Assembly (NCBI GenBank): GCA_963730185.1
Contig: CAVSQW010000014.1
Span: 1 to 64,000, forward strand
Origin: an uncultured Gemmatimonadales bacterium
GTDB lineage: Bacteria > Gemmatimonadota > Gemmatimonadetes > Gemmatimonadales > GWC2-71-9
Length of the DNA: 64,000 nucleotides
Reading direction: 5' to 3'
Shown here in pieces: positions 2,926-17,409 of this stretch. Under the pieces are notes generated by a model, which worked only from the letters and a program-made list of their open reading frames with translations, was not told the DNA's origin and made no database searches. The position numbers and the translations under genes are program-made. Each line of letters starts with the position of its first letter. The stretch's first letter is position 1.

Positions 2926-3270
2926 ATGACCGCGGCGAGCCGGGTCGGACTGAGCCACCTTCTTGACCGCATTTGGACCCTGGTCTGTCTTTTCGGCCTC
3001 GGGCTACTTCCCCTGATCGGGGGTCTTTGCGTCCTTGGCTGGCAAACCGTCCACTACCTGCAAGCCGGCACCTGGGCGCCAGTCTCATTCCTCGACTTCC
3101 TCCACTGGGCGAACGTTCGCCGCTCTTGGATCGAGTCGCCGAGCTCGTGGCTCGGCATCTGGAAGTTCTTCAACTGGCTTCCTGCGTCACTTGCTGGAGT
3201 CGTCTACGGTGGCGCCATATCAGTGATATTCGCCGCCGGCATGAAGGACGACGAATCGAGTGCCGCCTAA
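2926..3270 (+). CDS. Cassette 1b: small Trp-rich membrane protein
   Basis: 114 aa, two hydrophobic helices; its TAA stop lies within the attC GCCTAAC box. Confidence 0.65.
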   Translation: MTAASRVGLSHLLDRIWTLVCLFGLGLLPLIGGLCVLGWQTVHYLQAGTWAPVSFLDFLHWANVRRSWIESPSSWLGIWKFFNWLPASLAGVVYGGAISVIFAAGMKDDESSAA

Positions 3271-5711: not shown

Positions 5712-6680
5712 ATGAGAATACCTCCAGAGCTCCGACCTATGCTCTTCAGCGGCATCCCGTGGTATGAGCAGCTCGCTGAGCGGCCGTCAACGGAGCCGAC
5801 CGCGTGGTTTCTACTCCGTGATCCTGAGCCTGAGTGGTACGTACAGCTTCTGAATGCGACTATTGAGTTCCTTCAGCGGCACAAGCTGGTTCCGCTCTAC
5901 CGGGGCCGGCTACGAGCAATCCGGCCCGGCGACCTTACGCCCGGTCGCGCACAGAGTGAACGTCGCAACGTATCCCAGCCGATCTGGGATGTACTTAACG
6001 AGCCCCTCGTCGGCCTCGTGCTGGAACGCGCGGCCGGCTGGACGCTGCTCCAACCAGATCCGCCGGGGCGGTCGGGTCGCCTGGGCGACTGGCTCTTTCG
6101 GACCCCGTCGGGACGGGATGTCTTTGTTGAAGTGAAGAGCCCCGCTGAAATAGAGGCGACTACCGGGTCGGGTACGAGGTCTGACTACCGGCCTCGAATT
6201 CGCGCGGAAGTGCGCCGAGCGTACGGGCAGCTGCCCTCGGACGGCCGGGCGACGATGATCGTGATTGTCGGCAACGAGATGGTACGGGTGCCGTTCGGGC
6301 TGATGCTCGGCGACCTGTTTCAGGCCATGTTCGGTCAGTATGAAGTACGACTCCGGCCTTTCGAGCAGCCCTCGAGAATCACCTATCAGGGCCCGTCCTG
6401 GAGGGACATGTTGGTCCACGGGACCAAGCACCGCCAGCTGGGTTGTCTATGCGGCTTGTTGAAACGTGGGGTGGACCGGCCATTTCTCGGGTTGTATACC
6501 ATTCACAATCCGTTCGCGGACCCCACGGTTCGCTTGCCGGCCACCGACCTCGGCGGACTACATCAGTTTGCTGTTGATGACGAGCACGTTGGTCGCGAAG
6601 CGGGCGTCGATAATCACGAGGTGTGGGGCCGCCTTCAACTGCCAACCTGGCGACGCGATCCAGCCTCCGACGCCGCCTAA
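5712..6680 (+). CDS. Cassette 4: PD-(D/E)XK nuclease-like protein
   Basis: NE...GDWLF...VFVEVKS arrangement; stop codon inside the attC GCCTAAC. Confidence 0.6.
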   Translation: MRIPPELRPMLFSGIPWYEQLAERPSTEPTAWFLLRDPEPEWYVQLLNATIEFLQRHKLVPLYRGRLRAIRPGDLTPGRAQSERRNVSQPIWDVLNEPLVGLVLERAAGWTLLQPDPPGRSGRLGDWLFRTPSGRDVFVEVKSPAEIEATTGSGTRSDYRPRIRAEVRRAYGQLPSDGRATMIVIVGNEMVRVPFGLMLGDLFQAMFGQYEVRLRPFEQPSRITYQGPSWRDMLVHGTKHRQLGCLCGLLKRGVDRPFLGLYTIHNPFADPTVRLPATDLGGLHQFAVDDEHVGREAGVDNHEVWGRLQLPTWRRDPASDAA

Positions 6681-6812
6681 CACAATCTTGAACTGGACGG
6701 GCGCCAGGCGCTCCGCTTGCAGAGTCGCGGCCGCGCCCCGATGTTGGTTGGAGGATGGCGCGGCCGCTCAGTTCCGAGGCGGCGCCCGCCAGTTAAGATG
6801 TCGCCGTTAGGC
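6675..6812 (+). repeat. attC site 4 (138 bp)
   Basis: GCCTAAC...GTTAGGC; near-identical arms to sites 2 and 5. Confidence 0.93.
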
Positions 6813-6829
6813 GTCCCGTTGAGCTCCAG

Positions 6830-7695
6830 ATGCACAACGTCGTCCTTTACCTAGATACCAACCACGTATCGGAGCTCGCCCGATGCCCTACGGCCACGGA
6901 CCAGGCAGCCGTCCTGGGGCTCCTGCAGTCCGGTCGCGGGCGTCTTGCGATCTCGCTTGTCCATTTCATCGAACTGGCTGCCCCCGACTTCCGAAGCGTC
7001 GACGATGCGCGCGGTTTGCTGAGGGACGTACCGGTAGCTTGGACCGTTAGCACAGAGGAGCTATGGGACGGGGAGATCGCCGTGGCGTGCGCTCGGGCGC
7101 GCGGCCTCGAACGGCAGCCACCGCGCGTGTTCTGCGAGAATTCGCTTGATTGGTCCAGATGGCCCTCGCCAGCGTCGGGAAACGCCGCTGAGTTCCTCGA
7201 CTCGCTGATCGAGCAGCCGGCTCTGCGAGACGGACTCCTCCAGGTGGCCGACGAGTGGGCCCGGGCTTCAATGCTGAAGACCGAGGCCGCCTTGATCAAG
7301 GTACCGGGGCTTCCTCTGGAGTTGGCTGTGGACGCCCACTTGGCGGGATGGCGAGAGCGTAACGCCCACTATGCGGATGGGCTGAACGCCACCGAGATCG
7401 TCCGTGCGGTCGGCGGCTCAGTCGGATTCCCATCGCTGAACATGTTTCATCGAACCATAGAGCAGCGTTTGCGACAAGTCAGCCAGAAGAGTACACGGAA
7501 CGACATATTCGACGACTATCACGCCGCGTACGCCCCATATGCGGCGGTCACTGCGCTGGATCGCGGACTACGGCGCGGGTACGGAGTGCCGGACTTGCCG
7601 AGCTCCACCGGGTGACGGCACGGCTACGCGACGTACCCGACGTCCTGGCACGAGTTGAGAATGGCGAGCTATCGGTCGTACCGTCGACCTTCTAG
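6830..7695 (+). CDS. Cassette 5: PIN-like domain protein (probable frameshift near 7570)
   Basis: N-terminal VLYLDTN and C-terminal NDIFDDYH...ALDR acidic motifs. The ORF stops at 7615 as given, but an alternative frame continues to TAG 7695, next to the attC. Confidence 0.55.
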
Positions 7696-7704
7696 CCAGC
7701 GGAC

Positions 7705-7838
7705 GCCTAACAAAATCTTGAACTGGACGGGCGCCACCCACTCCGGTTTGCGAAGTCGCGGCCGCGCCCCAATCTTTCTAGCAGAATGGCGCGGCCGCTC
7801 AGGTCGGAGCGGCGCCCGCCAGTTAAGATTTGGCCGTT
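7705..7838 (+). repeat. attC site 5, interrupted at its GTT core by the IS110-family element
   Basis: GCCTAAC...GTT, then the IS; the remainder TAGACGGCC resumes at 9362. Confidence 0.92.
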
Positions 7839-7944
7839 GATATGACTGGGCTGCTGTCAAGGATCGTGATCTTCACCCACTCATGACCGTACCCTCCAGT
7901 GTCAGGCGACTGCGGTGAAAGAGACGACGGGCCCGGGGCTGCTT

Positions 7945-8095
7945 CGCCGATCATCCTGCTGATATACGCCGGTCAGCGGGTCCTCTCGCCGGAGCGGCAC
8001 GAAGTGGATGCGTCGGGAGCGACCTCGGTCTAGACACTCGGGTTCCGTTGGGCTGCACACGTACCGGATAACGACCAACGAGGGTTCCCCCCAGA
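7945..8095 (-). ncRNA. Candidate bridge/seek RNA of the IS1111-type element
   Basis: Minus-strand segments UUGGUCGUUA (8078-8069) and GUCUA (8035-8031) match the target halves; ACUUC (8005-8001) and AUAUCAG (7965-7959) match the donor junction halves. Flanked by CCUCG/CGAGG, CAUCC/GGAUG and GCCG/CGGC stems. RNA ends are unknown. Confidence 0.65.
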
Positions 8096-8123
8096 TCGTG
8101 CCCCGGCCACCCGCCGTCTCCTC

Positions 8124-9243
8124 TCAGGCCGCCGCCACCGCGCCGGGCTCGAGGTCCCGCATCACCGCCCAGAGAAAGCCGACCAGCTCGCGGGCGACGG
8201 CGACCGCCGCGATCTTGCGCTCCTTCCGATAGGCGAGGTGCTCAAACAGCCGGTGCAACCGATGCTGCGCTTTCCAGGCATGGGCGATCACGTCGGCCGG
8301 CTGCGACCGTTGGCGAGCCCGGAGCGCGGCCGCCACCTTGGGATAGTGCCGGTAGCTCCACGCCGCCTGCACCAACACGTGCCGGCAATGGCTGTTCCCC
8401 GCCTTGGTGATGGCGCCGAGGCGTTGGCGCGGGCCCGCTGGAGTGCTCGCGGGGCACCAGCCCCAGGAAGGCCATCAGCTGGCCGGCGGTGGCGAACCGG
8501 CGCCAGTCGCCGATCTCGGTCGCGAGCACCATCGCCGAATGGGTCTGCAGGCCGCGGAAGCAGCGGAGGCGGCCGACCGCCGGAGCGAGGTCCGGGCGGG
8601 TCGCCCGCTCGGCGATCTCGCGATCGAGCACCAGGCGGCGGTCCCGTTTGTATTGGAAGAGGGCCAGGTACTCGCGGAAGACCAGGAGGTCGTCCTCCTG
8701 GAGCGGCGACGTCGTCCGGGCCAGGGTCTCGAGCCAGGCGAGATGCCGCGGGCCCCAGTGGGGGCCGTCCCGATAGACGAGGCCCCGGCGGGTCAGGAAC
8801 TTGAGCAGATAGTGCTTCGACTGGAGGAGCTCCCGCTGGAGCGTCTCCCGGCACCGGACCAGGTCGCGGACCTGTTCCTCCGCCGCGCTGGGCACCCGGA
8901 CGGCGGTCAGCTCGCCGGCGCGGAAGAGCCGGACCAGCTGGGTCGCGTCGTACCGGTCGTGCTTGCGCTGGACCCCGGGCTTGGTGGGGATCAACGACGG
9001 GGCGATGACGGTGCAGGCGTGGCCCCAGCTCGTCAGGGCGCGGTAGAGCACGAACCCGGCCCCGCTGGCTTCGTAACAGACCTGGAGCGGCCCCTGGGTC
9101 GCCAGCCGGGCGAGATAGCGCTGGAGGGTCTTGGGCTCGTTGGGCAGGCGGTCCACCCGGGACGGGGTGGGGTCGCCGGCCGCCAGGACGGCCAGGGTGA
9201 TCGATGCCTGGTGCACATCCATCCCGACGTAGATATTGGACAT
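8124..9243 (-). CDS. IS110-family transposase/recombinase (one frameshift near 8435)
   Basis: VGMDVH, CYEAS and KHDRYDA (DEDD), LGLVPREHSSG (catalytic Ser region), ITKAGN, and C-terminal AVARELVGFLWA. Confidence 0.92.
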
Positions 9244-9419
9244 GGGCTGGTTCCTCCGACTGGCTGCGACAGTTGGTCCGGTCGCATGTGGCTCTGGCGA
9301 CTTCGGGGTCCCGAAGGAGCTAACCCACGGCGCTTCGGGGGGCCAGCCCAGTCATAACTTCTAGACGGCCCCGTATTTGGATCCTGGTGCGAATAGACCC
9401 CCTCCGCGGAGCGTCAGCA

Positions 9420-10115
9420 ATGGCTGGAACGTCGTGCACCAGATACCTTGGGCTGCTGCTGGCGGCCTTGCAGCTCGCACCCCTCCTTCAGCTGCGGGCT
9501 CAAGAGGCCCACACCATTGGTCAGGACCACCTTACCGAAGTGGCTTGCGTCGACGTGCCGTCGGGCGAGGCACGACCGGCGTTTGGTTGCTTCAACATCG
9601 GCGTTGTGACCGGACTTCACTTCGGCGACGCATCGGTGTTCTGGCATCTGCGCGCGTTTCCGAGCAGAAAGGCGGCAGAAGCCGCCAAGAGCGCGATGGG
9701 CATCGTGGTCGAGGAAGACGGGCAAGTGTGGCTCTCCGAATTCGGGCCTCGACGCGCCGGTCACGCGGGAGGGAAGGCGATTGCCGTCGTCGGACCGCTG
9801 CTCCTGCCGCCCGCAGCGAGCTACACGGCGGTTCTCTCATACGCTGTCATGCGGCCCGGCGACAACTCACGGGTGCATACACACTCGGGGCCCGAAGGCT
9901 GGTATGTGCTTACGGGAGAGCAATGTCTGGAGACACCGACCGGGGTTCAGCGGGCTCGGGCCGGCGCAACCATGACCGTGCCTTCGCATACCCCTATGGA
10001 ACTGAACGTCACAGGCAAGACGCTCCGCCGGGCGTTTGCCCTGGTCATTCATGATTCAACTCAACCGAGGGGCACCCCGTCCGATTGGAAACCCACCGGC
10101 GGCTGCAGTCATTGA
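9420..10115 (+). CDS. Cassette 6: secreted cupin-domain protein
   Basis: Signal peptide; HTHSGPEGWYVLTGE cupin motif. Confidence 0.8.
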   Translation: MAGTSCTRYLGLLLAALQLAPLLQLRAQEAHTIGQDHLTEVACVDVPSGEARPAFGCFNIGVVTGLHFGDASVFWHLRAFPSRKAAEAAKSAMGIVVEEDGQVWLSEFGPRRAGHAGGKAIAVVGPLLLPPAASYTAVLSYAVMRPGDNSRVHTHSGPEGWYVLTGEQCLETPTGVQRARAGATMTVPSHTPMELNVTGKTLRRAFALVIHDSTQPRGTPSDWKPTGGCSH

Positions 10116-10132
10116 CGATCGTGCGCTCGGCC

Positions 10133-10277
10133 GTCTAACCCGAGCGTGCGGTCTGACGAGGCCGCCGGGCATCCGGGCATTCCCGTGGCGTCGCCGGCCC
10201 GCCCGCTCCATGTCTGTTGAAGGCCGCGGCCGGGCCGGCACGTAGCGGCCTCGCAGCTGACACTCTAGTCGTTAGGC
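10133..10277 (+). repeat. attC site 6 (145 bp)
   Basis: GTCTAAC...GTTAGGC; related to site 3 (GAGGCCGCCGGGCATCC...GCGGCCTCGCAGC). Confidence 0.88.
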
Positions 10278-10389
10278 GGGCCAGTGCGCGGTCTGGCTTA
10301 TGGAGGGATTCGCTATGGCGCTCCCGGTTTGCGAAGGTACCACATGCACGCACGGTCACACACGGCAGCCATGTTCCCAGGGACCTGTC

Positions 10390-10881
10390 ATGACGTTCGT
10401 CTGGGTTCTTGGCCTCAGCATCCTGGCAACGCGGCTCAGCGCGCAGACGTCCGCCGACACGACCGCCATTCGCCAGATTGTGGAAGACGAGATCACGGCT
10501 TGGGATCAGGGAGACGCGACCGCCTACTCGCGTCACTTCGCGGCGAACGGCACGTTCACCAACATTCGAGGTGAGTTCTTCACGGGCTATGCGGGATTTC
10601 TGCGGCAGCACGAGATGATCTTCGAAAGCCTCTTCAAGCACACAAAGTTACAGCAGGATATCGTATCGCTCCGTTTCATCACTCCCGATGTCGCCGTAGT
10701 TGATGTGTTGACCGCGGTCACGGGTGTGGCGCGGCCACCGCCACGGATGACGCTCGATGGGCAAGGGCGACTGCGGACGCGCCTGCTGCAGGTCGTCGCG
10801 AGGCAGGCTGGGGAGTGGAAGATCGTCGCCTATCATAATGTGGACCTGAAGCCTGGGGTCCCGGTCCCGGCGCCACGATAA
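10390..10881 (+). CDS. Cassette 7: SgcJ/EcaC (NTF2-like, DUF4440) protein
   Basis: AW..GDA.AY...F..NGTFTNI.G, LRF.TPDVAVV, WKIVAYHN. Confidence 0.85.
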   Translation: MTFVWVLGLSILATRLSAQTSADTTAIRQIVEDEITAWDQGDATAYSRHFAANGTFTNIRGEFFTGYAGFLRQHEMIFESLFKHTKLQQDIVSLRFITPDVAVVDVLTAVTGVARPPPRMTLDGQGRLRTRLLQVVARQAGEWKIVAYHNVDLKPGVPVPAPR

Positions 10882-16094: not shown

Positions 16095-16318
16095 AACCGC
16101 CTAGTTCCATAATGGCATGGTTATATACAACGTCAAGGCAGGCCAGTCAAGGCTTTGGGGTCATATTTCCAAGGCGTTCGGGGAAGCCGACCGCTATGCG
16201 ATGTTCGGTTGCTCGACACTCATGGAGAGGCGGCTGAGGCGCGACGAGAGCACGCGGACCGGAAGCTCGGGTGAAACCGTAAGCTCCCCGTCAAGTGAGA
16301 CAGTCCGAAACGAGACTC

Positions 16319-17146
16319 TCAGGCGGCTGTGGCCCTCGGCAGATACGTGAGGGGCGGCACCCGGCCGAGGCTGTCGTGGGGCCGCACTGTGTTGTAGCGT
16401 TGGCGCCAAGCCTCACTGATGGTGCGGACCTCGTCCAGGGAGGCGAAGAGCCACGCGTTGAGGACTTCGTCGCGGTAGGTCCGATTGAACCGCTCAATGA
16501 ACGCGTTCTGATCGGGTTTGCCGGGTTGGATGTAGTGAATGGCGATCCCCCGGGCGGCGCACCACGCCACGAACGGGGCCGCCAAGAACTCGGGCCCATT
16601 GTCGCAGCGCAGCGCCGCCGGAGCCCCATGCACGGTCGCCAGCTCGTCAAGGACGGCGACGACCCGGCCGCTCGGCAGCGCCAAGGCGGGCTCGATCGCC
16701 AGGGCTTCGCGGTTGCCTTCCTCGAGGACGTTGAGCACGCGGAACGGCCGGCCGTCGTACAACCGATCGTGCATGAAATCGAGTGCCCAGGTCCCGTTCA
16801 ACGCCGGCACGACGGCGAACGGGTGGCGCGGACGGCCCGGCACCCGTCGCTTGGTCCGGCGCGGCAAGGTGAGGCGGAGCGCGCAGTAGATCCGGTGGAT
16901 CCGCTTGTGATTCCAGGGATGCCCGAGCGCCCGCAGCCGATCATAGCACTTCCAGAAGCCCCAGCGCGGGTCGGCGGCCACCACGTCCTGGAGCGCCTCG
17001 ATCACAGGGGCATCGCGCGCCGGCGCGGCCGGCGGGGACCGATAGAACGCCGCCCGCGAGAGTCCGACGATCCGGCAGGCCCGTTGCACCGCAAGCCCAT
17101 GGTCGACCAGGATCGTCGCGACCGGTCGTCGCGCGGACGGCGTTAC
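16319..17146 (-). CDS. IS3 OrfB DDE transposase domain
   Basis: WALDFMHD, RCDNGPEF, PGKP.QNAFIERFN; overlaps the orfA end, consistent with -1 frameshift fusion. Confidence 0.92.
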   Translation of the reverse strand, partial: VTPSARRPVATILVDHGLAVQRACRIVGLSRAAFYRSPPAAPARDAPVIEALQDVVAADPRWGFWKCYDRLRALGHPWNHKRIHRIYCALRLTLPRRTKRRVPGRPRHPFAVVPALNGTWALDFMHDRLYDGRPFRVLNVLEEGNREALAIEPALALPSGRVVAVLDELATVHGAPAALRCDNGPEFLAAPFVAWCAARGIAIHYIQPGKPDQNAFIERFNRTYRDEVLNAWLFASLDEVRTISEAWRQRYNTVRPHDSLGRVPPLTYLPRATAA

Positions 17147-17409
17147 AGTTTTCGGCTCAACACGTCCTTGATCGCGGTGTTCTCCAGGGCCAGATCGGCG
17201 TACATCCGCTTGAGTTTGGCGTTTTCCGCCTCGAGCTCCTTCAGCCGCCGCAGCTCCGCCACGCCGGCCCCGCCGTACTTTCGCCGCCAGGTGAAGTACG
17301 TCGCCCGGCTGATCCCGTGTTTCCGGAGCAAATCACTGACCGGGACGCCGGCTTCCGCCTCCTGCAAAATGCTGACGATCTGGGACTCGGTGAATCGGGA
17401 CTTCCTCAT
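17143..17409 (-). CDS. IS3 OrfA
   Basis: MRKSRFTESQIV.IL...HGIS.ATY..W..KYGG...LKELEAEN.KLKRMYADL. Confidence 0.93.
   Translation of the reverse strand: MRKSRFTESQIVSILQEAEAGVPVSDLLRKHGISRATYFTWRRKYGGAGVAELRRLKELEAENAKLKRMYADLALENTAIKDVLSRKL

Follow-up and report, generated by a model that had tools for sequence, protein, structure and literature searches.

A predicted bridge RNA of an IS1111-type insertion sequence matches an integron attC site and the element's own joined ends

An insertion sequence within an attC site

The window, by which we mean the whole 64,000-nucleotide stretch of an uncultured Gemmatimonadales genome analysed here, contains a cassette array with attC sites at 3265, 4150, 5559, 6675 and 10135. 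A further attC of this array is interrupted by an insertion sequence that is flanked on either side by a T, a one-base repeat. The element and its target comprise the following features, of which the two element ends and the second part of the target are read directly from the sequence.

7705..7838, plus strand: attC up to its R' triplet (R'' box GCCTAAC at 7705-7711, L'' with an extrahelical G, L', and GTT at 7836-7838; core base T7838)
7839..9361, minus strand: 1,523-bp IS1111-type insertion sequence of an ISSfr2/ISEc45-like lineage, delimited from its ends and flanks and lying antisense to the cassettes
7839..7853, minus strand: right end, a 3-bp extension plus a 12-bp subterminal inverted repeat
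7855..7860, minus strand: probable -35 element TTGACA of a circle-junction promoter (conserved TTGAC; presumed activity)
8124..9243, minus strand: DEDD transposase gene (PF01548, PF02371; D9, E58, D96, D99; SSG at 268-270; frameshift near 8430-8436)
9244..9343, minus strand: conserved 5' leader whose initial bases pair with the stretch directly 5' of the start codon in a consensus fold of 64 leaders
9344..9361, minus strand: left end, a 6-bp extension (7 counting the core) plus a 12-bp subterminal inverted repeat
9362..9366, plus strand: second core T followed by AGAC, the remainder of the R' box and the start of the next cassette

The attC part at 7705-7838, which 9363-9366 completes, is 85% identical to the attC at 6675-6812 and folds into a hairpin, the arms of which were assigned by the extra G. 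The element is inserted antisense at GTT^AGAC, with junctions TTGGCCGT-T-GATAT (7830-7843) and AACTTC-T-AGAC (9356-9366). The next open reading frame (9387-10115) is cupin-like, at a score under the Pfam cut-off. Integron integrases are reported to cut between the G and the TT (PMC2727003, PMC2811028), and the element therefore sits two bases past the crossover. Insertion keeps the GTT and the attC stem and replaces AGAC by GATA, and the interrupted site is predicted to fold without R-box pairing.

IS1111 elements are described as having subterminal inverted repeats of 11-13 bp and extensions of 7 bp on the left and 3 bp on the right (PMC11187229). The present element conforms to this rule, with perfect 12-bp repeats at 7842-7853 and 9344-9355 and extensions of 7 and 3 bp when the left end is given the core. 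Its non-coding sequence amounts to 285 bp 3' of the transposase gene versus 118 bp 5' of it, a long downstream region like that of the IS1111 group. The transposase scores 163 bits for NF033542 (cut-off 140) and belongs by its features to the IS110 superfamily. The frameshift falls downstream of the serine loop, and the two frames are 83% and 79% identical to an intact homologue, L082, which has one unbroken frame of 372 aa. A base is missing at 8430 or 8436 in two related copies (about 89-92% identical, from two contig sets), and no same-strain contig crosses the frameshift in the four contig sets compared with 6600-10400. The window copy is either dead or mis-assembled.

The host genome contains a second, internally deleted copy (C6:198167-199104), which is inserted into a different attC at the identical base. 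Two integron-type integrase genes are present on contigs other than that of the window (C13:211-215 kb and C6:184-200 kb), each on the same strand as its own cassettes; the C6 integrase gene appears frameshifted, and C13 carries a near-duplicate of a cassette unit of 919 bp. The element's nearest relatives among the best 80 of 96 homologous loci are Gemmatimonadota records. Beyond the cassette array, the window also holds at 16295-17409 an element with two open reading frames (17409-17143 and 17089-16319) that we take to be IS3-family-like. At 38-1427 lies a gene, presumably phosphoesterase-like, that is seemingly broken over several frames, a hint of assembly indel errors.

Of 79 relatives among the best-match loci, 76 have TTGAC in the terminal 30 nt of their right end, 71 of them at identical spacing. 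The accompanying -10 is weak, and a sigma-70 scan of 7600-9500 returned no promoter. Neither an empty site nor a circle junction appears in the four contig sets over 6600-10400, a type of data in which rare forms are lost. The consensus fold of the 5' leader has few covarying pairs, and the leader might possibly act as a translational lock.

Guide motifs and fold of the downstream RNA

The preliminary description proposed a bridge or seek RNA on the transposase strand downstream of the gene, with a target-binding loop followed by a donor-binding loop and four short guide motifs. All four motifs are present at the positions it gave, 8078-8069 (TTGGTCGTTA), 8035-8031 (GTCTA), 8005-8001 (ACTTC) and 7965-7959 (ATATCAG), and the corresponding features are as follows.

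7935..8105, minus strand: putative scaffold of the bridge/seek RNA, about 170 nt long and delimited approximately from comparative structure, with an outer stem and one loop each for binding target and donor
8069..8078, minus strand: first target guide, with its covarying part at 8076-8069
8028..8035, minus strand: second target guide GTCTA (8035-8031) and the handshake bases GAC after it
8001..8005, minus strand: left donor guide ACTTC, the weakest of the four guides
7959..7965, minus strand: right donor guide ATATCAG, which follows variants of the element end
7958, minus strand: donor-loop handshake base; by analogy with IS621 (PMC11208158), its partner once strands have been exchanged would be the G in the GTT of the target

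When the 253-nt non-coding region was dinucleotide-shuffled 20,000 times, 0 shuffles contained the ordered set of four motifs and 2 contained a loosened version of it. Single motifs are frequent in such shuffles (GTCTA in 3,129 and ACTTC in 2,097 of the 20,000), so the support lies in the ordered set, as had been argued from the start. Since the motifs were picked post hoc, tests on homologues weigh more than the shuffles. A 5' bridge RNA of the IS110 type was rejected because all four matches lie in the 3' region. A search of the window with Rfam at the gathering threshold returned nothing.

A 35-pair structure was taken from RNAalifold on the very alignment of 32 selected homologues on which it is scored, and was extended by eye with two further helices. 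Pairing is seen in 95.2% of its cells and two-sided changes at 16 of its pairs; 0 of 500 shuffles scored as high, and slid controls reached 30-45%. The two helices placed by eye (helices 6 and 7, in the donor loop) are conserved and lack two-sided changes. The stems named at the outset are backed across these 32 homologues (CTCG/CGAG at 8083-8080/8026-8023, ATCC/GGAT at 8009-8006/7956-7953 and GCCG/CGGC at 7998-7995/7971-7968). As for the loops, the donor loop also forms when the window RNA is folded as a single sequence; the target loop does not form there and is drawn from the comparison of homologues.

Homologous loci were taken as the best 80 of 96 and the best 80 of 203 from two scans. 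Searched with an RNA profile, the 160 loci together with both host copies yielded 98 matching sequences, 91 of which were long enough for alignment. Guides were compared with flanks using one representative per 90% RNA cluster (n=43 for the first guide, n=39 for the second), and wrong end calls at L002 and L149 (right) and L116 (left) were excluded before counting. Among these best-match loci, the first guide matched its flank at 259 positions (shuffled mean 150, maximum 185 in 5,000) and the second at 140 (99 and 128), although the shuffle p-values overstate the significance because kin are not independent. Guides thus covary with flanks across homologues, and both signals persist at 95, 90 and 85% RNA clustering, with or without four divergent rows. 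An unbiased column scan placed its strongest signals in the first guide, over a background of signals driven by lineage.

Beyond the core, covariation reaches six bases in the first guide, where the seventh position is marginal and the eighth not significant, and four bases in the second; the bases after the second target guide agree with the left end of the element itself. Covariation with the flank is thus limited to about 8 nt of the first guide (8076-8069), and the 9/10 match originally reported for this guide is partly luck. Several rows fit less well. The C6 host copy has the CGTTA match only, plus a second-guide mismatch, the guide match of L166 is 4 nt long, and L112, L019, L023 and L011/L013/L020 have 0 contiguous guide matches in the fixed register. 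Among same-soil relatives, one 126-nt contig has three of its five differences in the first guide.

Whole-guide and target switches coincide in a REP-like clade (L090-L097, L155) and in L138/L139, L014, L015, L150 and L157. L138/L139 are nested within the attC elements in a transposase tree that ignores five rows in the wrong frame (L005, L017, L022, L054, L143). By comparison across homologues, the two-loop fold is thus shown to be conserved and the guides to change with targets and ends.

Three groups of relatives deserve separate mention. A sister clade (L090, L091, L094, L095, L097, L155) is retargeted to the repeated palindrome GTCATCCYGA^GCGNAGCGA, which we take to be REP-like, and five of its six members have 8-nt guide matches there. 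A related element that was not part of the training set is present in three copies (L184, at G039:C4:261000-265600, L185 and L186; 99.7-99.8% identical). Its first guide, ATTTTCTA, matches 8 nt at the left junction of an attC-type element, to which it is complementary. Two of these three copies directly abut an attC-type left end and the third lies at a GAAAAT site; the handshake bases match the element's own left end, and the element is apparently an insertion sequence programmed against another insertion sequence. In L158, L159 and L166, three additional bases separate the element end from the attC GTT, possibly a consequence of imprecise insertion.

Target choice, core and strand exchange

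To place the target within attC, we assembled 40 distinct loci whose guide reads CGTTA and whose flank covers 150 nt or more, and used host sites reading CGTTA[GT]RC as controls. Among the best-match loci, an attC-like hairpin ends at the element in 30 of these 40 versus 1 of 20 loci with other guides, and one is found at 19 of 261 host control sites. Extrahelical G calls on the 30 hairpin loci assign 25 to R' in antisense orientation, in agreement with the attC core target first proposed, and leave 4 unclear and 1 as a weak R''. At about position 4050 of L184, an attC-type element (L184 B) clearly occupies the R'' arm and is oriented in sense, so that both arms of the near-palindromic site can serve as targets. 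L136 has a family member at the 3' end of a 59-bp attC, behind a membrane-protein cassette; we take this attC to be of the short, class-1-like type. Insertion sequence copies with a common downstream cassette and different upstream attCs, the pattern that shuffling by the integrase would leave, were limited among the best-match loci to L103/L107, whose 7 nt of flank are too short to be informative.

These distributions bear on whether the RNA is the sole determinant of the site. The transposase might in addition read the attC hairpin, as ISPpu10 is reported to read a target stem-loop (bioRxiv 10.64898/2026.03.19.712850). In the host genome, where fold-based attC detection over all contigs was too noisy at 70% GC, 60 sites fit the 10-nt target pattern and 4 of them pass the attC-hairpin test. 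The two host copies and 30 of the 40 relatives nevertheless lie in attC. The enrichment would, however, also arise if insertions into genes were selected against, and L111 and L134 occupy guide-matching sites at which the attC hairpin was not found. We regard this second determinant as a real prospect, although somewhat under an even bet.

An extension of this idea casts the element as an RNA-guided hitch-hiker that reads both hairpin and sequence, becomes the 5' part of the next cassette and is moved by the integron. The GTT triplet and whole attC stem are left in place, and on this account the site would therefore stay recombinogenic. The change of AGAC to GATA and the loss of R-box pairing in the predicted fold speak against it, and we consider the proposal rather unlikely.

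The core appears to be a single base. Among the best-match loci the first core position varies freely between targets, and 63 of the 65 elements having both ends repeat just one A at the two junctions, from which it follows that one shared base suffices, as the preliminary description had suspected. Numbered as in IS621, the element has a CT donor core and meets a TT target core in attC, so that only one base need be shared. By analogy, we infer that the cuts lie next to this shared T.

The second loop varies with the element's ends and also with the target. Where the element end varies to ATAGC, ATACC or ATATT, the right donor guide changes with it. The left one is almost invariant at TTC, and its fourth position alone covaries (30 of 58 versus 20.5). 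In 38 of 43 RNA clusters from the best-match loci, base 7958, the second after the guide's core A, equals the target base two places from the core (26.4 in shuffles, maximum 35 in 20,000). The donor-loop handshake of IS621 has the same register, its position 166 being reported to meet target position 7 (PMC11208158).

These data weigh on a model in which the target loop alone guides, as in short seekRNAs, the protein reads the ends by way of the subterminal repeats and the matches in the donor loop are mere vestiges. An 82-nt ISEc11 seekRNA is reported to be enough for movement (PMC11187229), and covariation of the left donor guide is confined to one position, both as this model would have it. 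The right donor guide nonetheless tracks three different end changes, and the adjoining base 7958 varies with the target, which implies that the donor loop takes part in strand exchange; we accordingly think the model improbable. Still less credible, and largely refuted by the comparisons, is an origin of the matches by chance or through ancestry that the elements share with attC families of the host. In favour of it, two of the four motifs are frequent singly and the column scan has a lineage-driven background, but the top signals of that scan lie in the first guide, covariation survives 85% clustering and tree-nested guide switches coincide with target switches.

We therefore favour the reading that the region encodes the bridge (seek) RNA of an IS1111-type element. 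Guide-flank covariation, structure covariation, the handshake and the location in attC all agree with it, as do the order of the target and donor loops and their strandedness, and we consider it very probable. By comparison across homologues, the first loop spells the insertion site on both strands and the second the joined ends, and the lineage is mostly programmed against attC R'. By analogy with IS621 and ISEc11, the element would excise as a circle, and a promoter formed at the circle junction would drive both transposase and RNA. The ribonucleoprotein would then open target and junction, the catalytic serine would cut beside the shared T ahead of strand exchange, and the handshake bases would pull the reaction toward insertion. 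Despite the frameshifted transposase, the RNA of the window copy could still act in trans.

Relation to known RNA-guided elements

The founding papers on IS1111-attC elements are reportedly those of Tetu and Holmes (2008) and Post and Hall (2009). This group (ISKpn4, ISPst6, ISPa21, ISPa25) is described as a single clade inserting near the 5' end of attC (PMC3001079), and RNA-guided attC targeting has already been published for the seekRNAs of ISKpn4 and ISPst6 (PMC11187229). The window element has in common with it the subterminal repeats, a 3' non-coding RNA, a top-strand match preceding a bottom-strand match and an antisense position in attC. It differs in the end that is used, the window lineage being found mostly at the 3' R' box. 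No ISKpn4-family locus was among the plasmid matches listed (40 top-ranked and 60 spread rows, out of at least 5,000 records), and the comparison of lineages is therefore indirect, running through ISSfr2. Identities of the window protein are 43% with the ISSfr2 family, 37% with the ISEc45 family and 27% with the IS4321 family, whereas ISSfr2 is about 24% identical to ISKpn4/ISPst6/ISPa21 (PMC11187229). In the supplement of that paper the ISKpn4 RNA contains, by eye, TAACAAT and TTGAA, and both agree with the 5' end of the attC of 59 bp that is occupied at its 3' end in L136.

The nearest named transposases are those of the ISSfr2/ISEc45/ISCARN28 subgroup of the IS110 family, and the RNA profile built here matches the ISSfr2 3' region (E 5e-8). 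ISSfr2 is labelled IS1111 in the source data of PMC11187229, at 19-26% identity to core members, and bridge RNAs were predicted earlier for 93% of IS1111 elements, ISCARN28 of this subgroup included (PMC11208160). In the literature searched we found for this subgroup no attC target and no experimental test. In titles and the starts of abstracts of mainly open-access literature, no description of this lineage or of R' insertion was found. Targets 136-146 in the supplement of PMC11208160 are unlabelled and by eye resemble attC 3' ends centred on GT, so another R' IS110 lineage may already be in published data.

What is new here is the separate lineage at the opposite end of attC, the handshake signal and the apparent one-base core, within a mechanism known since 2024. 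The lineage provides a bridge RNA whose four guides and handshake base can all be read, in an ISSfr2-like subgroup of the IS110 family. It also suggests that IS1111-type donor loops work like those of IS621, a role that was raised and left unsettled in the seekRNA peer-review file (PMC11187229). A one-base core would relax target rules in genome engineering. The window lineage would have reached attC independently of ISKpn4/ISPst6, in which case attC has been colonised at least twice by RNA-guided elements, at opposite ends. How such insertions affect cassette shuffling is described as little studied (PMC11616780), and the window lineage makes the question testable.

Group IIC-attC introns, which also are mobile and home to the attC bottom strand, are retroelements with a different chemistry (PMC3001079). 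A further parallel is IS621 (PMC11208160, PMC11208158), with which the window element shares a target loop followed by a donor loop, four guides with equal strand logic on the attC top strand, a donor core CT in register and a donor-loop handshake base that covaries with target position 7. IS621 is described as having its RNA upstream of the gene, short repeats and a required shared CT core, whereas the window element has its RNA downstream of the gene, 12-bp repeats and one shared base. As judged from sequence comparison, the element is IS1111-type by anatomy, bridge/seek-like in its predicted working and outside the IS1111-attC group.
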